Sequence record: AP018932
DNA: 64,000 bases
Direction: 5' to 3' (one strand)
Source of the DNA: Escherichia phage KIT03
Both the position numbers and the translations under genes were made by a program. Shown here in pieces: positions 5,156-37,043 of this stretch (position 1 is its first letter; every line of letters starts with the position of its first letter). The notes under the pieces are model-generated. The model ran no database searches, was not told the DNA's origin, and saw only the letters and a list, made by a program, of their open reading frames with translations.

Positions 5156-5581
5156 TTATTCCTTAAAATGTGCTTTCAGCATCTGATACAAAGACCATGC
5201 CTGTTCATTATTTTCAATAGTAACTTTCATGACCGGGAATTCTGTGAAATCTTCTATTTGTTCTTGCTCTTTCTCTTCCTGCTCTTGCTCTTCGGCTGCC
5301 TGGTATGGATTTTCCACTTCATCAAAGAACGCAGCTTCGCTCGTTGAAAGCCAGATAAAATCTTCATCCAAAATATCTTTACCAGAAGATAACGCCAATT
5401 TTCCACTAGATGTCACAATTTTAGTAGGACGACCAAGATAGTCAATATCTGTAACTCTAAAAGGTTCCATACCAAGACGACGTGCATAAATTCCATTTTC
5501 AGTATGGTCCTTGATAAAATTTTCTTGAGCTTGTTTATTTTTAAATTGATACCATTTATTAACTTCAAATTTAGTAGCCAT
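5156..5581 (-). CDS. hypothetical protein, 141 aa; possible goF homolog by length and position
   Basis: 141 aa equals recalled T4 goF length; acidic [11 protein letters not shown] stretch. Confidence 0.5.
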
Positions 5582-5796
5582 TAATAAGTTTCCTTCCAGT
5601 AAGTTGTGCCATCTTCAGTAATTTCACGAAATACACCGTAAATTGGTTGTTTATCGCCGACTTTCTCATACACATAAACCGAAGTCAAGTGAGTAAACTT
5701 AGCAGTGTGTTCCTTTTGAACTACTACCAAATATGGATCAAATAATACATCTTCAAATTCGTCATTAGTGCAATTCTGAACAATTTTACGTTTCAT
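5581..5796 (-). CDS. hypothetical protein, 71 aa; possible cef homolog by length and position
   Basis: 71 aa equals recalled T4 cef length; overlapping stop/start with upstream gene. Confidence 0.45.
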
Positions 5797-5809
5797 TACA
5801 ATTTCCTCA

Positions 5810-6079
5810 TTAATTGAACAGTGGAGCGATGCGTTTCAGAAGAGTAGCAGCACCTTTAGCGAATTTTACATCATGAAAAACAGTTTCTTCTTCCGTTACA
5901 ACACGAGCTTTAATGTTTTCACAATCCCAATTTTTGCGAACAATCTTCAAAAGCTGCAGTAAATCTTTGCATTCAGCAATATCGATAACACATCCACGAG
6001 AATCTTCCATTATCGCACGATAACCGTAAGCCATACCATAATCGTTGAAAGATTGTTCGATGATAATTAAGTTTTCCAT
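5810..6079 (-). CDS. hypothetical protein, 89 aa
   Basis: ATG at 6077-6079 preceded by GGAGAATAAA leader shared with two other genes; ORF-track start at 6091 is a TTG extension. Confidence 0.5.
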   Translation of the reverse strand: MENLIIIEQSFNDYGMAYGYRAIMEDSRGCVIDIAECKDLLQLLKIVRKNWDCENIKARVVTEEETVFHDVKFAKGAATLLKRIAPLFN

Positions 6080-6122
6080 TTTATTCTCCAAGTTGTTTTC
6101 TGTATCAGTAGTTGATATTGAT

Positions 6123-6152
6123 ATAGTACCATAATCAACTACTGATGTATAT
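6123..6152 (-). promoter_or_regulatory. probable early promoter (TGGTACTAT extended -10; -35 poorly matched)
   Basis: -10 and leader nearly identical to promoter cassettes at 25398 and 52555. Confidence 0.35.
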
Positions 6153-6176
6153 AGTTTTATGAAAAAATTTTAAACT

Positions 6177-6674
6177 TTATGCACAGCGAGCTTTGCTATA
6201 GTGTTTAATCCAACTTTCAGGAATGACTTTGTATGTTCCTAAAAATACCGCGTTGTACAACTTAACGCCATCTTCTACCCACTGATCGGTGATGTATGCA
6301 CACATAGCGCGAGTACGGTGTTTTTGAACAACCCCTTCCTCATCTTCAGTAAATTCGAATTCATAAGGAGCAACGAACTTAATAGCTTGACCGAGTTTCC
6401 ACTTAAAGTCTACACCTACGTGCGAAGTATCAATCGTTTCAATTCCTTTAGCAGGAACAGCTTTCAAAAACGCAGACTCAAGAAATTTCGCACGAACATA
6501 GCCAAACTGAGGTTTAGATTTTCCATCTTTAGGAATGATACGCACTTTTACTTCAGAATCTTCATCTTTAACACCGTGTTTAAGCTGAATGCTTACAATT
6601 TCGACCAATTTTCCTGCTGCTTTAGAACGGGATTTATCAGATACACGAGCAATTTCACCAATATTAATAATCAT
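6177..6674 (-). CDS. hypothetical basic protein, 165 aa; possible MotB-like; paralog of next gene
   Basis: C-terminal ITDQWVEDGVKLYNAVF resembles VTDQWFEDGVELLNVVH of 6751-7287. Confidence 0.5.
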   Translation of the reverse strand: MIINIGEIARVSDKSRSKAAGKLVEIVSIQLKHGVKDEDSEVKVRIIPKDGKSKPQFGYVRAKFLESAFLKAVPAKGIETIDTSHVGVDFKWKLGQAIKFVAPYEFEFTEDEEGVVQKHRTRAMCAYITDQWVEDGVKLYNAVFLGTYKVIPESWIKHYSKARCA

Positions 6675-6750
6675 AGTTATCTCTCACTTGTTAAAAAGAT
6701 TTTATACTCCACGGGACCAGAGTATAATGGTCCCAAGAGTTTGTAAACTA

Positions 6751-7287
6751 TTAATTTAAAATAGCTACCACCGCACTACGAGGTACTACACTAAAATCAC
6801 CTGCATGAACAACGTTCAGAAGTTCAACACCATCTTCAAACCACTGGTCAGTTACCCAACCACAGACCGAAATAAATGGAGTCTTGATAGCTACCGCATG
6901 AGTTAGAAGGTCAGTAGGATCGCATTCTTGAAAGAGGATGAACTCTGCTTCATAAACCAGGATTTTCTCTATTTTGTTATTGTCTAAACGACGACCGTGG
7001 ACAATATAAGATTTAGTAAACCATTTACTTTTTTCAAAATCTTCAACAATAAATTCGCCTTCGCCAAAAACATCAGTCAGAGTTTTATGGCCGGAAATCA
7101 AGGCATTAGTTTTAATTTCAGGTTCAACCAGTTTGTAGGTTTTGCCAATTTCGATGGTCCGAGCAGTCATAAATGTTTCCTTAATTTCTAATGGTTTAAC
7201 AAGGGTGCCGTACATGCTTGCTATATCCATATCAAACGGTTTATCTACAGGATTCGGTGTGTATTTAGGATTATAATTAAATTTCAT
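6751..7287 (-). CDS. hypothetical protein, 178 aa; paralog of 6177-6674
   Basis: shared C-terminal motif with neighbour. Confidence 0.5.
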   Translation of the reverse strand: MKFNYNPKYTPNPVDKPFDMDIASMYGTLVKPLEIKETFMTARTIEIGKTYKLVEPEIKTNALISGHKTLTDVFGEGEFIVEDFEKSKWFTKSYIVHGRRLDNNKIEKILVYEAEFILFQECDPTDLLTHAVAIKTPFISVCGWVTDQWFEDGVELLNVVHAGDFSVVPRSAVVAILN

Positions 7288-7289
7288 AA

Positions 7290-7802
7290 TTATTTCATTT
7301 CAATAAAATCTATGAGTTCAGCATGCGATTTGCGGAACATTACTTGGTGCCCGCCAATGATAACTTCATCTTCAGGAACTTCATAAATCGCAATGTACAT
7401 TCCACGATCTTTTAAGTCTTCACGCTCTTCTCGGGTGAACCATCTCATCATATCATATTCACTAGCGAAAGCAAAATGATATAATGAAATAAGCCACAAT
7501 GGAATATAATTTTCAAATTGTGAATAATCTTTATTCCATTTAGTTTTAATAGCATCATTAGCATTTTCAACTAATAACTTATCATCGTGTGGAATAGGAA
7601 TACTTTCATGGCTTTCATAATTATCGCTATGATGATGAAATGACGATGAATTAATACCGCAAAATTTTAGCCAAGTTCGAGTTTTCATAGAATCAAATCC
7701 ACGATAAGGAGTTGATTGAACGCATAACTCTTGCCTAATTTTCACTATACCACTATCATCATTTAATGCGCTAAACGATGATTCAACACGATAAATTTTC
7801 AT
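7290..7802 (-). CDS. hypothetical protein, about 170 aa
   Basis: start moved to ATG at 7800-7802 (GAGGA RBS) because ORF-track start 7841 lies inside the promoter. Confidence 0.5.
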   Translation of the reverse strand: MKIYRVESSFSALNDDSGIVKIRQELCVQSTPYRGFDSMKTRTWLKFCGINSSSFHHHSDNYESHESIPIPHDDKLLVENANDAIKTKWNKDYSQFENYIPLWLISLYHFAFASEYDMMRWFTREEREDLKDRGMYIAIYEVPEDEVIIGGHQVMFRKSHAELIDFIEMK

Positions 7803-19708: not shown

Positions 19709-21135
19709 TAAAATTTTAATTCATTCGCTAAAGCATCTAACTGAGCTCGAGCAGATTCGTTTCTTTGATAGCGATTCTGTTCAGCCTGAATCTGCTGTGA
19801 ACCTGCTACTTCACTCACTTCGGTTGGAGTAGAATCTTGCTCAATTTCTACCCATTTCTGATTTCCTTTTTGAACACCCATCAAAAACTTATTCCATTTG
19901 TTCTTATCACCATATCGTGATTTGATTTGCTTAATGAGTTGTTGTTCAGCAGCTGCTAGCTCCTCGGTTTCAATGACCGCAAGCATAAAATCGGCTGTTG
20001 CTGGAAGACCGGCAGATTCTGCAATATCGCTCATGTTAACATCAGAAGAGTCCCAAGCTTGCTTACCAACCTGTGCTGCAGTCCAAAGAACAGTTTCGGT
20101 TTCAACAGCAAGAGCACGCAATTCTTCTGCGATGGCTTTAACAGTTGTGTAACTATTTTCTGAATAAACTCTGATGCGGCAAGATTTACAAATACCTAGA
20201 TAGTCGACAATAATGATTGTTGGAACAAAATTCTTCTTGAGCTTTAATTCATTTAAAAGTGATCGAAATGTATTAGCGTCTGCTCCACCAGTAGGATATT
20301 GCTTAACGATTAAACGACCGAGAGTAGATTTCTCACGCCATTTTTCCATTTTTCCTTTATACTCGGCATAAGAAATATGTCCATCATCAATATCGTCAAG
20401 AGAAACATCGAGCATGTTAGCATCAATACGTTTAGCACAGACTTCTTCTGCCATTTCCATGGAGATATAAAGAACGTTATGACCAAGCTGCAAATAATCT
20501 GCTGCTAATGAACAAAGTCCTAATGATTTACCAACGTTAACGCCAGCCATTAAAACGTTCAGTGTTCCAGTCTCAGCTCCGCCTTTAGTAATTTTATTTA
20601 GAATTTTGAGTCTAAATGGAACCTTACGAGCTTTATTCATATAAGATAGCCAGCGTGCTTCGTAGTCATCCATCCAATCATGACCAACGTAGCTATCAAA
20701 TGAAATTGATAATGCTTGACGCATGATGTCAGGAATAGCACCAACATCCGGCATTTTCTTATTTCGTTTTTCCGGAGGAAGCTCAGCATTAGTTTGAATT
20801 TCAATTATTTTAGACGTAGCATTAAACATCGCCCTTTGCTGAACATATTTTTCTGTTTCTTTTACTAACCAGTTGTGGTCTTCTGGAGAATCAGCCAGTT
20901 TTGAAATAAGTGTTTTTACACCAGAATATTCTGTTTCAGTAAATGAACTATTTTCTAATGCAACATTTAACGCATTAATAGATGGAACGCTATGATACTC
21001 ATTAACATGAGATTTAATTAATTTGAATGTATTTTTAGCTGGACCACTTTCAAAATATTCTGAATCCATATATGGCCAAACTTTTGAAAAATAAGCTTGA
21101 TCAAATATGAGATGAGAAAGAATAATTTCTACCAC
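19708..21135 (-). CDS. 41: replicative DNA helicase gp41 (DnaB family)
   Basis: 475 aa equals recalled T4 gp41 length; Walker A GVNVGKS. Confidence 0.9.
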   Translation of the reverse strand: MVEIILSHLIFDQAYFSKVWPYMDSEYFESGPAKNTFKLIKSHVNEYHSVPSINALNVALENSSFTETEYSGVKTLISKLADSPEDHNWLVKETEKYVQQRAMFNATSKIIEIQTNAELPPEKRNKKMPDVGAIPDIMRQALSISFDSYVGHDWMDDYEARWLSYMNKARKVPFRLKILNKITKGGAETGTLNVLMAGVNVGKSLGLCSLAADYLQLGHNVLYISMEMAEEVCAKRIDANMLDVSLDDIDDGHISYAEYKGKMEKWREKSTLGRLIVKQYPTGGADANTFRSLLNELKLKKNFVPTIIIVDYLGICKSCRIRVYSENSYTTVKAIAEELRALAVETETVLWTAAQVGKQAWDSSDVNMSDIAESAGLPATADFMLAVIETEELAAAEQQLIKQIKSRYGDKNKWNKFLMGVQKGNQKWVEIEQDSTPTEVSEVAGSQQIQAEQNRYQRNESARAQLDALANELKF

Positions 21136-21144
21136 ACTTACTCC

Positions 21145-21507
21145 TTAAAAGAATTTAAATTTTTTCTTTGACCTTTTATTAAATGCATCTTGTAATTGCA
21201 TTGTAATACATTTTTCTACATGAGGAGCTAACTCAGCTTTTCTTTCTTGGTCAAGAACAGCAAAGTCCATTACGACTTTTCCATCAACCCAATTTAATTT
21301 TGTCACATACACAATGTGTGTAGAACCATCTTCTAGTTTAATGACAATCTCCTGGATAACATTTTCCATGGCAGATTTAATTATCTTAAGAGACTCATTA
21401 AAAAGACGTTCTTTTCTTTCTTCTTCCCCCTCCGAAGAGGGGGATTCATCGATAATTTCTAGATCTAAATCTAAATCATCTTTATTCATTAAATTCTTCC
21501 ATATCAC
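21145..21507 (-). CDS. 40: gp40-like protein
   Basis: about 115-120 aa ORF between 41 and uvsX; start may be an internal Met. Confidence 0.55.
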   Translation of the reverse strand: MIWKNLMNKDDLDLDLEIIDESPSSEGEEERKERLFNESLKIIKSAMENVIQEIVIKLEDGSTHIVYVTKLNWVDGKVVMDFAVLDQERKAELAPHVEKCITMQLQDAFNKRSKKKFKFF

Positions 21508-22663
21508 TTAACTGCTCAAGGTCAGTTTCTAAATCAGCAGCTGATTTACTTTTACTTTCTGGAGATTTAAATTTTTCAACCTTTGAGTTAATCAATTCAT
21601 CAACTTCAGCTTCAACAATTTCATTACTATCAATAGCACCTAACTGATAAGCACGTTTAATAGCATCTCGGAATGGTTGATGCTTAAATAAAGGACCCCA
21701 GAATGTAGTGCAGTTGGTATCTTTTGCACGCCAAGATTTTTCTTCGCGAATCATCTCGCCGGTTTCTTCATCAAGAAATTCACGAGCATACCAACCATTT
21801 TTAGGTTTTACCACGAATCCTAATTCTAGAGCCATATCTAACAATCCAGAATAAGGATCGATACCGCCGTCAAATTTAACATCAATAAAGAATTTACTTT
21901 TTTCTTTAACGGTACGAGATTTTTCTACATTTAGAACAAATTGATACCCTTGAAGATCAGAACCATCTTTAATCTGACGTTTACCGATAATGAATACGGT
22001 ATCAGCCGAATACATTACGCCTGTACCACCTGTCATCACGGTTTTACTAAACATTTCAATTGTTTCAATTGTATGGTTAACCGCAACACATGGAATGTTT
22101 TTAATACTAAAATAAGGAGTAACAATACGGAATAATGACTTCAGTGATTTAGCACGAGTCATATCTGCCACAGATTTTTCATTCAAGGCATCTTCCGTTT
22201 CTTTCTTAGAAGCCATATTACCAATTGAGTCGATGAATACAATAACTTTTTCACCACGCTCAATAGCTTCAAGCTGATTCACCATATCAATTTTCAGCTG
22301 TTCAACTGACTGAATTGGTGTATGAATTACTCGTTCCGGGTCAACTCCCATGGATCGCAAATAAGCTGGAGTAATACCAAATTCGCTATCATAGAATAGA
22401 CATACCGCGTCAGGATATTTGTTCAAATACGCCGCAACCATAGTCAAAGACATATTTGATTTAAAGTGTTTAGAAGGACCTGCAAAAATGGTTAAACCAG
22501 ACTGCATACCACCATCAATCGCACCAGAAATAGCGATATTAAGCATTGGGATTTTTGTACGAATTACATCCTTTTCATTAAAGAATTTAGATGTAGTCAG
22601 TTCAGCAGTCATTTTAGAAGTGGAAGCTTTAATCAAACGGGATTTTAAATCTGCAATAGACAT
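21482..22663 (-). CDS. uvsX: UvsX recombinase (RecA-like)
   Basis: 393 aa; RecA fold motifs. Confidence 0.9.
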   Translation of the reverse strand: MSIADLKSRLIKASTSKMTAELTTSKFFNEKDVIRTKIPMLNIAISGAIDGGMQSGLTIFAGPSKHFKSNMSLTMVAAYLNKYPDAVCLFYDSEFGITPAYLRSMGVDPERVIHTPIQSVEQLKIDMVNQLEAIERGEKVIVFIDSIGNMASKKETEDALNEKSVADMTRAKSLKSLFRIVTPYFSIKNIPCVAVNHTIETIEMFSKTVMTGGTGVMYSADTVFIIGKRQIKDGSDLQGYQFVLNVEKSRTVKEKSKFFIDVKFDGGIDPYSGLLDMALELGFVVKPKNGWYAREFLDEETGEMIREEKSWRAKDTNCTTFWGPLFKHQPFRDAIKRAYQLGAIDSNEIVEAEVDELINSKVEKFKSPESKSKSAADLETDLEQLSDMEEFNE

Positions 22664-22740
22664 TCATTTTTTCCATAGGCATCATTATATTTTCCTCACT
22701 GGTTAAAGATAGAGTAATTATAACACAATAAATTTAGGCA

Positions 22741-23589
22741 TTAATCAACTGCTATTGGATGAATAGCATTAAACTTATGAAACGCTTCTGATTTTTCTTT
22801 GCGCGAAACACACATGCGAAGAACCTTTAATGGCTCGTCTTCTTCACCCAACGATTTTCTCTTTTCAATATTCGATGTTTTCCAACGAGCTTGCTCTGGA
22901 AACTCTCTATTGATTTGCTCAAGAGCTCTATTATGTTTTGAATTACTACGAATTGAACTGCACCCGCCCGGAGCCTGTGCTTTTCCAGATACAACCAGAT
23001 ATTTGAACAAGGCCAAATGCGGATAACCTTGATTAATTAAATTGAGAAATGCATACATATCTTCGCATAAATCAATTTTTCCATACCCAATTTGTTCTGT
23101 TGTAAGTTTCCCGAGGTCATACCAAGTATTCGTGAATCCATATGAATTTTCACGATAATTACCCCAAGATGAAGTAATTTTAAAAATAGGTAGACGAGCA
23201 TGACCGTGATAATACCCGCAATCCATGGCATCTTCCACGTATTGAATCAATTCATAGAACTGTTCACGAGTTAATTGATTAATTTTATCTACACAGCGAC
23301 GATCATCTTTCTTTCGCATTGAACTCATACGAATAGTAGTATCATCATCAATCATCCAGATTCGTTGACCTGCATACATATCAGTAATTGCTTTACGAGT
23401 ACCAGCAATTCCATTAACATCATCAGGAATAGTTATAATTTTGGCTTTAGACCCGTAAGCGTCATAATAAGCTTTTTCTTCGTGTTCACGTACTACAATA
23501 TGAGGTTCATAATCAGTCGGAAACATATCAAGGGCAGAAACTGCCCCTACGCGTTGATAGCTTGGAATTACGAATTGAATCATTTCCAC
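22741..23589 (-). CDS. DNA glucosyltransferase, 282 aa, at the T4 beta-gt position; possibly T2/T6-type
   Basis: ORF between uvsX and 42; shorter than recalled T4 beta-gt (351 aa). Confidence 0.5.
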   Translation of the reverse strand: MEMIQFVIPSYQRVGAVSALDMFPTDYEPHIVVREHEEKAYYDAYGSKAKIITIPDDVNGIAGTRKAITDMYAGQRIWMIDDDTTIRMSSMRKKDDRRCVDKINQLTREQFYELIQYVEDAMDCGYYHGHARLPIFKITSSWGNYRENSYGFTNTWYDLGKLTTEQIGYGKIDLCEDMYAFLNLINQGYPHLALFKYLVVSGKAQAPGGCSSIRSNSKHNRALEQINREFPEQARWKTSNIEKRKSLGEEDEPLKVLRMCVSRKEKSEAFHKFNAIHPIAVD

Positions 23590-24320
23590 TCACCATTATA
23601 ATCTTTTTTCACAATATGAGTTTCGCCAGTATTCCACCAATGATCAACCAAGTAAAAATGACGAGAATATACATGAAGACTTCCAACATTCCATATAATA
23701 GAACCTGCTTTATACTGACGAGTTGAATCACCTGCATTCAAATCAGATACTAATTTATCTAGTACGTATTTTTGCCATGCATAATCATTACGGAATCCGA
23801 AGACCACGTCATTTGAACGCATGCTTACTACTGCATTGACTTTCTTATCACGAATCAGGTATTGTACTGTATTCGTACACATGAAATCTGACATACCATC
23901 TTTATTGTAGTCAAATTGCATGGATGGACGAGTATAAATCATGATACCGCGTCGAGAATCAGGATTTTGACCAAGTTCAGCTAAACACATATCATATTGG
24001 GCATAGTTATCTTCTGACCAGATGGCCCAACCATAATTCGAATTAATTTCGCCTTTAGAAGATGCTACCTGTTGCCAAATCTTCGGTGTTTCACCTGGAA
24101 TATCTTTAACAAACAAACTTTTAGATTTATACCATTCAAGTTCACGCTGAATGTATTCATCATTAAGAGCGCCAAAAATAAATGGTTCATCTGCTACAAA
24201 TGATGCGCCAATAATTTCAATAGTTTTAACGCCAGTTTTATCAACTACGAAATCTTTTTCCTTTAATGCAAGCCCCAAATGAAGACGGATTTCTTCAACT
24301 GTCATAGAGTCACTAATCAT
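23580..24320 (-). CDS. 42: dCMP hydroxymethylase gp42
   Basis: 246 aa equals recalled T4 gp42 length; thymidylate-synthase-like. Confidence 0.88.
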   Translation of the reverse strand: MISDSMTVEEIRLHLGLALKEKDFVVDKTGVKTIEIIGASFVADEPFIFGALNDEYIQRELEWYKSKSLFVKDIPGETPKIWQQVASSKGEINSNYGWAIWSEDNYAQYDMCLAELGQNPDSRRGIMIYTRPSMQFDYNKDGMSDFMCTNTVQYLIRDKKVNAVVSMRSNDVVFGFRNDYAWQKYVLDKLVSDLNAGDSTRQYKAGSIIWNVGSLHVYSRHFYLVDHWWNTGETHIVKKDYNGEWK

Positions 24321-24473
24321 TTAAACCTCAATTGATACATTCATATTTAACTTGTAACAGTAATAAACCCCAACCTATAATAAGTGTCGGAATCATACAA
24401 GGAACCGTTACGCTATAGTATATACTTATTATAATCATCAAGATTAAAAGCAATACTGCTAAAATTTTGCTTT

Positions 24474-24725
24474 TCATTCCTTCTCTCTGATGATAATTAC
24501 TTGATTCGGTTGTGCAGATTTTTTAGTTTCACCCGCAATTGACCAAATAAATGTAATAAACCAACCAATAATTGACCAATTAAACAGTAAAGATGTGAAA
24601 AAGATTCCTACTGTCGATTTTGACCCACGCATCAAGGCGATGAACCACGGAAGCATGTATATAATGATAGCCAACACGCCTGAAACTAAAACCATAAAAA
24701 TTGAACCTGCTACTAAAGTTTCCAT
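24474..24725 (-). CDS. imm: Imm superinfection immunity membrane protein
   Basis: 83 aa with two hydrophobic segments. Confidence 0.75.
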   Translation of the reverse strand: METLVAGSIFMVLVSGVLAIIIYMLPWFIALMRGSKSTVGIFFTSLLFNWSIIGWFITFIWSIAGETKKSAQPNQVIIIREKE

Positions 24726-24732
24726 CTTTTCC

Positions 24733-25113
24733 TCACTTAGTCAAATTTTTTACGCATGAATTATAAGAATTCACTACATACTCCATCGGAGCATTTTTAC
24801 CAGTACGCCATTGGTAATTATTAGCCCAATTAGCCCAAAGTTCGGCGCAGTAGTTTTCAATTTTTTCTTCGCGTGTAATTACATCCGAATTACGATATGC
24901 TTGAGCAGATTCATCTGGACGAATAGCTTCGTCAAAATTCGCCTGCATTTGTTCTACTGTCTGTTTTGGAGCTTCTTTATAACACTTGACATTAGGATTA
25001 TAAAACTTGCTTGAACAGTTTACAATTTTTCCTACATCAGACTGATTTACTACCGGTCCTTGAGCCACACAACCAGTAAGACCTAATGCAATAACCAAAA
25101 TAGCGATTTTCAT
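24733..25113 (-). CDS. predicted lipoprotein, 126 aa
   Basis: signal peptide with LTGC lipobox. Confidence 0.55.
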   Translation of the reverse strand: MKIAILVIALGLTGCVAQGPVVNQSDVGKIVNCSSKFYNPNVKCYKEAPKQTVEQMQANFDEAIRPDESAQAYRNSDVITREEKIENYCAELWANWANNYQWRTGKNAPMEYVVNSYNSCVKNLTK

Positions 25114-25123
25114 AATAATTTCC

Positions 25124-25360
25124 TCAAATGCAAGTAGTAATTACTCCAGTAGTGCTTATGCAGGTATTACCCATTTGCACACCTAAAGATCCATTTGTAT
25201 TCACATGAAGATTATCATCAATTTTAACTGATATTTTACCATTAGTGTGAATAACGGTGCTAGATTTAATCACAGGTTGAGTATCATTTTCAACACTAAT
25301 AAATGGAACTGCTACTAATGCAACTAAACAAACTGCTAAACATCCCATAACAATTTTCAT
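25124..25360 (-). CDS. secreted/membrane protein, about 78 aa
   Basis: ATG at 25358-25360 after GGAGAATAAA leader; N-terminal signal-like segment. Confidence 0.5.
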   Translation of the reverse strand: MKIVMGCLAVCLVALVAVPFISVENDTQPVIKSSTVIHTNGKISVKIDDNLHVNTNGSLGVQMGNTCISTTGVITTCI

Positions 25361-25397
25361 TTTATTCTCCAAATCTGTATCAGTAGTTGATAGTTGT

Positions 25398-25427
25398 ATA
25401 GTACCATAGAAGAACAGGGATGTAAAC
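25398..25427 (-). promoter_or_regulatory. T4 early-type promoter in a promoter-stem-loop cassette
   Basis: GTTTAC-n18-TACTAT with TG extension. Confidence 0.6.
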
Positions 25428-25512
25428 AGTTTTGTGAAATTTTTTAGGGAATTCTAAAGGTCCAGAATCATCTGTTTTTCATAAGTATAGATTTATATTA
25501 CTTGTATGAAAA

Positions 25513-33346: not shown

Positions 33347-34201
33347 TCACAATGAAGAAAATTCTTTAACTAAAGCCTGTAATGAAGCCTCTATTGGATA
33401 TCCATTCTTAACTAACATTTTCCTAAACATTACATGTTTAGGACGATTATATGATATCCACAATTCATACAATTTATCTTTATTATCCCAATGATAGCCT
33501 TTTCGTCGAGATGCTATATGAGCTTTTCTAATCTCCGGATTTTTCCAACTAGCAGCTACTGAATTTGATATAGCTATTTTATATTCAGGTTTTGATAAAG
33601 CAGCACGAACAGCCTTTTGGTGTTTAATTTTATTTTCTTCGTTATTAAACCATTCCCTTGAAGCCATTGAAATTTTTTGTTTTGTTTTAAAATTATTTAA
33701 TCTTTCTTTATTATCTTTCCTATTTTTTGCTACTGAAAAATATTTTAATGCCCTTTCTCTAGCAGCATTTCTATTTTGCGGATTTGAATAATACTGTTGA
33801 AGCCTTTTTGATATTGTGTCACTTACATCTTGTTTTATAAAACTATACTCAGCAGCTATTAAATCAACTTCGGCTAAAGATAAATTTTTATATGTTTTTC
33901 CTGACATCATTCTATTTAAAGCATTTAGCATTTTTCCATTTTTACCTTTTGCTAATAAGAAGTGTGCTTTAAAATGATTAAAATGACTTAAATTAACTAA
34001 ATTCCATGTAGATTTTAAATATTCAGGAAATATTGATTTAGGAAGCACGTGGTGTGCTTCCGTTTTACCTGGAGTTTTAACAGTTGAATTCACAGAAATA
34101 AAATTAATGTAAGACTTGGCGTCTTCTTCACTCAACGCTAATTTTTCAACTAATTCCTTTATTAAAAATTCATCATTAATGTCAAGTTTAAAATTCTTCA
34201 C
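33347..34201 (-). CDS. free-standing HNH homing endonuclease, 284 aa
   Basis: HH...N...H motif (EAHHVLPKSIF...NLVNLSHFNHFKAHF) and basic C-terminal DNA-binding region. Confidence 0.65.
   Translation of the reverse strand: MKNFKLDINDEFLIKELVEKLALSEEDAKSYINFISVNSTVKTPGKTEAHHVLPKSIFPEYLKSTWNLVNLSHFNHFKAHFLLAKGKNGKMLNALNRMMSGKTYKNLSLAEVDLIAAEYSFIKQDVSDTISKRLQQYYSNPQNRNAARERALKYFSVAKNRKDNKERLNNFKTKQKISMASREWFNNEENKIKHQKAVRAALSKPEYKIAISNSVAASWKNPEIRKAHIASRRKGYHWDNKDKLYELWISYNRPKHVMFRKMLVKNGYPIEASLQALVKEFSSL
33347..34201 (-). mobile_element. homing endonuclease gene inserted between genes 46 and 47
   Basis: T4 has only small ORFs here (recalled); N-terminal motif duplicated in next ORF. Confidence 0.5.
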
Positions 34202-35824: not shown

Positions 35825-35842
35825 AAAGGGCCGAAGCCCTTT
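35825..35842 (-). terminator. hairpin with UUCG loop at a-gt stop
   Basis: plus aaagggc-cgaa-gcccttt. Confidence 0.55.
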
Positions 35843-37043
35843 ATTTTGTAATAATGTCAAACTGTTCTTTAAAGCAGAAGCTTGAATCTTGATGCTGATA
35901 CAAAAATTCATAAGCTTTTTCACGTTCGCGGTCATAAAGAGTTCGGTCAGATGACAGTTCTTTAATACGTTCAAATGTTGATTCCATGTCATTTTCATCA
36001 AACCAAATGATACCGCTATCATGCGAGGTCAAAGGAGTATTATCAACACGGAATTTTAAATTTTCGCCAGTAGATTTCCAAAATACCGGAATTGTTCCAC
36101 ATGCACCAAGCTCGAGATGAGTATATTCTAAAGAACGTTGTAGATATTTTTTATCCAACTTACTCAACTGATAACCAAAACCGGATTTACTCATACGTTC
36201 AAGCATTTCGCTATTTACATAACGGTCAAGAATTTGCGTTGGCAAATTAGGAGCAATTTTAATTTGGTCTACTTGATGAAGACGATAATACTCGTATGGA
36301 ATTCCTTTTTCTTTAATAGGAATGAACGCTGGAGAACGTTCCAGACCTTCCATAATAGTACTTAGTCCTGCAGGTTTAAGATGTTTTTCGTGAAAATCAA
36401 ACATCTGATAAAAACCTTTCCATGTAGTCGTACGACCAATCCAACGGTTGATATTCATGTTAATTTCAGAAACATCTTTCCAGTAGGTTGATCGAACCTT
36501 CGCAATATCCATAGGAGGCTGAAAGTTATATACGGTCGGTGCTTCTTCAATATCATCAAACAGAGAAACAGTTTCTGGATACCACTCTTTCATCAGAACT
36601 TTATTAAAATCACCATTATCAGAATGGCTAAAAATAACATCAGCTCGACGAACAGTTTCTTCTAATCCCAAATTTCGGCGCAAAGAAAGAGAAGAATGGT
36701 CATGTTGATAAACTACAACACGAACCGAAGGTTTAATGTTATCAATAATTTTTTTATAGTTATTAATAGTGTCTTCTTCTACTGAAGTAGCAGGAACTGA
36801 ATTGATAATTAGAATATCACAATCATTTACCAGCTTAAGTGTTTTATCGTATTCTTTTGCCAATAAAACCGGAATTGAAAATGATTTATAATCATGCGCG
36901 CAATTACGAGTAAATGATTTATCTTTAGCATAAACCAAAGTTACTTCATGACCATTTTTAATAAACCAATCACGCTGCTCGAGAGAAAATTTAGTTACGC
37001 CGCAACCTTCAAGACCTCGAGCCATAAAAATACATACTTTCAT
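35841..37043 (-). CDS. a-gt: alpha-glucosyltransferase
   Basis: 400 aa equals recalled T4 alpha-gt length. Confidence 0.85.
   Translation of the reverse strand: MKVCIFMARGLEGCGVTKFSLEQRDWFIKNGHEVTLVYAKDKSFTRNCAHDYKSFSIPVLLAKEYDKTLKLVNDCDILIINSVPATSVEEDTINNYKKIIDNIKPSVRVVVYQHDHSSLSLRRNLGLEETVRRADVIFSHSDNGDFNKVLMKEWYPETVSLFDDIEEAPTVYNFQPPMDIAKVRSTYWKDVSEINMNINRWIGRTTTWKGFYQMFDFHEKHLKPAGLSTIMEGLERSPAFIPIKEKGIPYEYYRLHQVDQIKIAPNLPTQILDRYVNSEMLERMSKSGFGYQLSKLDKKYLQRSLEYTHLELGACGTIPVFWKSTGENLKFRVDNTPLTSHDSGIIWFDENDMESTFERIKELSSDRTLYDREREKAYEFLYQHQDSSFCFKEQFDIITK

Follow-up and report, generated by a model that had tools for sequence, protein, structure and literature searches.

The slot downstream of gene 42 in Escherichia phage KIT03 raises the question of which glucosyltransferase it encodes and which sugar decoration the phage DNA would carry as a result. 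In phage T4 this slot holds the beta-glucosyltransferase gene b-gt, the product of which takes UDP-glucose as donor and forms a beta linkage on the hmC DNA of the phage. The locus was analysed in a stretch of 64,000 nucleotides from sequence record AP018932, referred to here as the window. An earlier note on this DNA had described a 282-aa ORF between uvsX and gene 42, had found it shorter than T4 b-gt and unlike it, and had proposed an enzyme of the T2/T6 type that adds a second glucose. The gene order in the window is 41, 40, uvsX, ba-gt, 42, imm, imm.1, 43, as in T2 and T6, and the synteny of gene 42 is shared with T4, T2 and T6. The locus consists of the following features:

21482..22663, minus strand: uvsX recombinase, downstream flank of the locus (ORF; 90% DNA identity to T4 uvsX; annotations in related records)
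22741..23583, minus strand: CDS of beta-glucosyl-HMC-alpha-glucosyltransferase (ba-gt / ggt / TAGT, PF20691), 280 aa from ATG
23580..24320, minus strand: gene 42, dCMP hydroxymethylase (Pfam Thymidylat_synt, E = 1.1e-15; 95% DNA identity to T4 gene 42)

The ORF and its position agree with the earlier description, except for the start. In the ORF listing of the window the frame runs from 22741 to 23589 on the minus strand and yields 282 aa from a GTG at 23589. An ATG at 23583, two codons downstream of this GTG, overlaps the TGA stop of gene 42 (23582-23580) by 4 nt as ATGA and is preceded by a Shine-Dalgarno-like GGTGAG; the DNA around the start reads GGTGAGTGGAAATGATTCAA. Three T2 genome records annotate a CDS of 843 nt and 280 aa with the identical 4-nt overlap with gene 42. 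Because of the ATGA overlap, the GGTGAG and the T2 annotation, the gene most likely spans 22741..23583 and encodes 280 aa, and the GTG start, considered as an alternative, is less likely in view of the overlap and the T2 annotation. The T2 gene resembles that of the window in its length of 280 aa, its slot between gene 42 and uvsX, its ATGA overlap and its partner genes, alpha-gt and gene 42.

Scans of 22500-24600 for sigma-70 promoters and terminators gave sites no more numerous than in shuffles. Only one hairpin in this region resembles a terminator (23549-23529), and it lies within the coding region. It reads GGGGCAG-TTT-CTGCCCT (23529-23549, minus strand), occupies ba-gt codons 12-18 just upstream of Met20, and does not vary between T2, T6 and the window. 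Folding of 23515-23600 gave a non-significant z of -1.8, and the hairpin is probably incidental.

The protein was identified by sequence comparison. Over its full length of 280 aa it shares 98% amino acid identity with the ggt/ba-gt products of T2 and of T6 (AP018814), and 255 of 261 residues are identical to the product of a second T6 record, MH550421. PHROG 842, ‘beta-glucosyl-HMC-alpha-glucosyltransferase’, was matched with E = 1.7e-89 over profile positions 3-269 of 270, and Pfam PF20691 (TET-associated glycosyltransferase, TAGT) with 38.8 bits (gathering score 27.5) and an alignment spanning profile positions 2-205 of 205. A scan of the protein against NCBIfam matched no family. An identical 280-aa protein has been deposited for Escherichia phage KIT03 (BBG28564.1), under the name beta-glucosyl-HMC-alpha-glucosyltransferase. 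It is also found unchanged on 19 contigs, called independent, and its 90%-identity cluster has 485 members. The alpha-glucosyltransferase gene is present in the window as well:

35841..37043, minus strand: alpha-glucosyltransferase (a-gt), intact, 400 aa (91% identity to T4 a-gt over 400 aa; PF11440 AGT, E = 4e-237)

The 98% identity, the PHROG 842 and PF20691 matches, the T2/T6 locus and the presence of alpha-gt all support the earlier proposal of a second-glucose enzyme. We are highly confident that the gene encodes a T2/T6-type beta-glucosyl-HMC-alpha-glucosyltransferase (a glucosyl-DNA beta-glucosyltransferase of the TAGT family), that it acts in the pathway as proposed, and that the phage lacks a T4-type beta-gt, none being found in the 64-kb window.

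The alternative that the locus position itself suggests is a diverged or truncated T4-type enzyme adding a single beta-glucose to hmC, since this is where T4 has b-gt. Everything else speaks against it. T4 b-gt is 351 aa long, as the earlier note had given it, and thus longer than the ORF whether 282 or 280 aa is taken. BLASTP between the two proteins gave only chance scraps (best E = 3.3), so the lack of resemblance noted earlier was borne out; homology to T4 b-gt over the full length is absent, and the 98% match to T2 and T6 was found instead. With T4 b-gt as query, tblastn over all 64 kb of the window returned nothing better than E = 1.5, and no homologue of beta-gt was found in the window, which is part of the genome. 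PF09198, matched by T4 b-gt at E = 9.4e-98, has no match in the ba-gt protein even at E <= 10. T4 b-gt has the GT-B fold (PMC13216743); the modelled ba-gt protein does not show its two Rossmann domains and is predicted to be GT-A. The DNA segment, too, has no T4 homology. On these grounds a T4-type identity was refuted, its probability being next to nil. The two enzymes share the slot downstream of gene 42 but differ in acceptor, which is the hydroxyl of unmodified hmC for T4 b-gt and the 6-OH of an existing alpha-glucose for ba-gt.

Conservation within the family was assessed on an alignment of 81 homologues with a mean column identity of 24%. At E <= 1e-3, an exhaustive HMMER search had retrieved 339 representative clusters, a number that fell to 63 at <= 1e-10 and to nine at <= 1e-30. 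Residues R11, D80, D175 and G207 are invariant in the alignment, and I6, P7, R63, D79, D81, G186, G206, R212 and P229 are at least 90% conserved. The window protein keeps every one of these positions, including R11, D79-D80-D81, D175, G206-G207 and R212. Two groups of codons are of particular relevance:

23341..23349, minus strand: codons D79-D80-D81 (GAT GAT GAT), DxD-type motif (D80 invariant; D79 and D81 in 80/81 homologues)
23059..23064, minus strand: codons E174-D175 (GAA GAT) in LCEDMY (D175 in 81/81, E174 in 67/81 homologues)

The AlphaFold model of the protein has a GT-A fold with a pLDDT of 95. A sequence search of the PDB gave only chance matches (E >= 0.75), with no solved close relative and no solved structure of any TAGT member among them. 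The fold matches inverting GT-A (GT2-like) enzymes, for example WrtF (9omh), AvpGT (9jma), TarP (6h1j), TarS (5tze) and BcsA (4p00), although the sequence identity of these enzymes to ba-gt is only 8-15% and their acceptor is a lipid, polysaccharide or protein, whereas that of ba-gt is a sugar on duplex DNA.

In T2 and T6, gp42 makes hmC at the nucleotide level, alpha-gt puts an alpha-glucose on hmC in the DNA, and ba-gt attaches a second glucose through a beta-1,6 bond; the resulting gentiobiosyl-hmC represents 72% of hmC in T6 and 5% in T2 (PMC6024577, PMC13216743). By analogy, gene 42 of KIT03 would make hm-dCMP for incorporation into the phage DNA, and alpha-gt would add an alpha-linked glucose to part of the hmC residues, providing the acceptor of ba-gt. 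With UDP-glucose, the 280-aa GT-A-fold enzyme would then place a second glucose, beta-1,6, on the alpha-glucose to form alpha-gentiobiosyl-hmC. A UDP-alpha-glucose donor and a beta-linked product together mean that the reaction would invert the configuration. By comparison with GT2-like GT-A enzymes, D79-D80-D81 may be the DxD site holding the metal and UDP(-glucose), and D175, in E174-D175, is a candidate for the catalytic base activating the acceptor 6-OH (cf. the ‘ED’ motif of inverting GT2); both catalytic roles are putative.

The predicted catalysis by ba-gt on DNA with alpha-glucosyl-hmC draws its support from the close match to the characterised enzymes and from LC-MS of sister phages. 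Tequatrovirus phages of the Durham collection with alpha-GT and a TAGT, the latter in a slot syntenic with T4 beta-GT, contained alpha-glucosyl-hmC and alpha-gentiobiosyl-hmC, and beta-glucosyl-hmC was absent (PMC13390438). The predicted KIT03 DNA, similar to that of T2/T6, would contain hmC, alpha-glucosyl-hmC and alpha-gentiobiosyl-hmC, and no beta-glucosyl-hmC because the phage, judging from the window, lacks a T4-type beta-gt. The proportion of gentiobiosyl-hmC is not predictable from the sequence: the T2 and T6 enzymes are almost the same, yet the values are 5% in T2 and 72% in T6.

Two other readings concern the activity rather than the family of the enzyme. As the TAGT family is broad, with many of its 339 clusters at only 20-30% identity, and as homologues are accompanied by alpha-GT, by beta-GT or by neither (PMC13216743), specificity varies across the family, and an enzyme with another sugar donor, or with unmodified hmC or beta-glucosyl-hmC as acceptor, could be imagined. 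The 98% identity to biochemically characterised T2/T6 enzymes, together with a shared gene context that includes alpha-gt, makes this very unlikely; differences from T2/T6 are few, and in the window copy none affects a conserved family position. Slightly less probable still is that the gene, though present, yields little or no activity, which would leave the DNA essentially with alpha-glucosyl-hmC and hmC only. Damage to ba-gt is evidently tolerated in reference stocks, where the following lesions were found:

T6 MH550421, 4951-4953 (window 23554-23556): CAG to TAG, amber at ba-gt codon 10
T6 AP018814, 635-1474 (window 23341-23349): one GAT of the D79-D80-D81 motif missing, 279 aa
T2, all three records (8093-8095 in L005, also L006 and L007; window 23551-23553): R11H at the family-invariant Arg

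The window copy carries none of these lesions: its ORF is of full length, no conserved residue is missing, and the sequence recurs unaltered on the 19 contigs mentioned above. A T2/T6-type enzyme that adds the second glucose therefore remains the preferred reading.

Upon comparison of the proteins, five substitutions were counted from the window to T2 (R11H, K46R, K92R, I101V and P251S) and six from the window to T6 (Y40N, K46R, D55G, K92R, I101V and R106H). The deposited T2 and T6 records are altered at conserved positions, unlike the ba-gt of the window. Codon 10 is CAG in T6 AP018814, CAA in the window and TAG in T6 MH550421; in the latter record ba-gt is annotated as 261 aa from Met20, a product in which the first beta-strand and the invariant R11 would be missing. 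The amber mutation and the loss of an Asp from the DDD motif, in two laboratory stocks of T6, are independent and probably disabling, and they suggest a loss of ba-gt during laboratory passage and a gene that may be dispensable or even selected against on laboratory E. coli. The gene hit by these lesions is the one behind the gentiobiosyl-hmC that is the hallmark of T6.

Among 15 sampled members of the 90% cluster, R11 was present in all, and the pattern WMIDDDT was matched in 14, the one without a match being P0171 (phage EP01). In a scan of IMG/VR with the N-terminal coding sequence, H11 (T2-like) had no matches and R11 had three, too few for a frequency. A tentative reading, which we consider rather doubtful, is that the ba-gt sequence does predict the extent of gentiobiosylation, R11H being a hypomorphic change responsible for the 5% of T2 versus the 72% of T6, with the T6 lesions pointing to a gene that is dispensable or selected against in the laboratory. 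If the part on R11H were true, the R11 allele of the window, as in T6 and the 15 relatives, would give a high, T6-like level of gentiobiosyl-hmC.

The replacement at the locus was delimited by blastn of window positions 21000-25500 against T4:

22652..23597, no strand assigned: segment without T4 DNA homology, 946 bp

On the uvsX side, homology to T4 extends to 22651, within the 5' end of that gene; on the other side it begins again at 23598, at the 3' end of gene 42. The T4 counterpart measures 1941 bp (5557-7497 of the T4 sequence L001) and carries segA and b-gt; segA, a homing endonuclease gene, accompanies b-gt in T4 and is absent at the window locus. With a GC content of 0.371 and a GC3 of 0.253, the 946-bp segment is like the neighbouring genes, and a recent horizontal acquisition of the window cassette was rejected on this composition. 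At the T4 locus, b-gt, adjoined by the GIY-YIG homing endonuclease gene segA, has a GC content of 0.309, below that of its surroundings. The low GC of T4 b-gt and the presence of segA, set against the neighbour-like composition of the window cassette, hint that the arrangement in T4 was acquired more recently.

The earlier note had treated the content of the locus as unusual, and here it has to be corrected, as the state is a common one. Megablast with the 849-base query found the gene at 90-99% identity in 478 phage records. These are mostly from Tequatrovirus phages of Escherichia, Shigella and Yersinia, and the majority label the gene beta-glucosyl-HMC-alpha-glucosyl-transferase or ‘glucosyl transferase’. 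DNA of the T4-type b-gt was found in 29 phage records only, essentially T4 and its close kin. From 478 versus 29 records it follows that T4 is the exception at this locus and that ba-gt is the usual gene there in T4-like coliphages. Phages Aplg8, ECML-134, T6, CM8 and PP01 share about 97% identity with the window over a stretch of 24 kb. Some labels in the databases were found to be wrong: in RB55 (KM607002) and RB59 (KM607003) the T4-type b-gt is named ‘beta-glucosyl-HMC-alpha-glucosyl-transferase’, and in phage Ge15 (PP359696) the TAGT gene is named ‘alpha-glucosyl-transferase’.

Two further ORFs of the window were observed at sites that differ from T4:

33347-34201, minus strand: ORF of 284 aa, flanked by genes 46 and 47, at the site of 46.1 and 46.2 in T4
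25124-25372, minus strand: ORF of 82 aa between imm.1 and gene 43, in a segment without T4 homology (25114-25346)

The first matched PHROG 655, ‘homing endonuclease’ (E = 8e-45), as well as a family of HNH endonucleases, while Pfam gave no match at 1e-3. It probably represents the insertion of a mobile endonuclease, which T4 lacks at that site. The second matched PHROG 4189, a family of unknown function, and starts with a hydrophobic stretch resembling a signal peptide or transmembrane segment. T2 has an ORF at the same position, ‘RB51ORF048’, alike in size and position.

For the window itself, the gain is a correct annotation only. The gene is a known one in its usual place and commonest form; the identical protein had been deposited, and the gene was discussed in papers of 2018 and 2026. 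The feature is therefore ordinary, already known and published. For annotators, alpha-gt with a TAGT is the norm in Tequatrovirus phages, and the alpha-gt with beta-gt of T4 is the exception. The glucosylation of T-even phages is textbook biology that was re-examined in 2026 papers, and the biological function of TAGTs is ‘yet to be defined’ according to the authors of the NAR 2026 paper. Which sugars decorate the phage DNA is determined by the ba-gt gene, and this decoration governs the sensitivity to host defences that recognise glucosylated hmC, for instance type IV restriction of the GmrSD/BrxU type, the Brig1 glycosylase and CRISPR-Cas.
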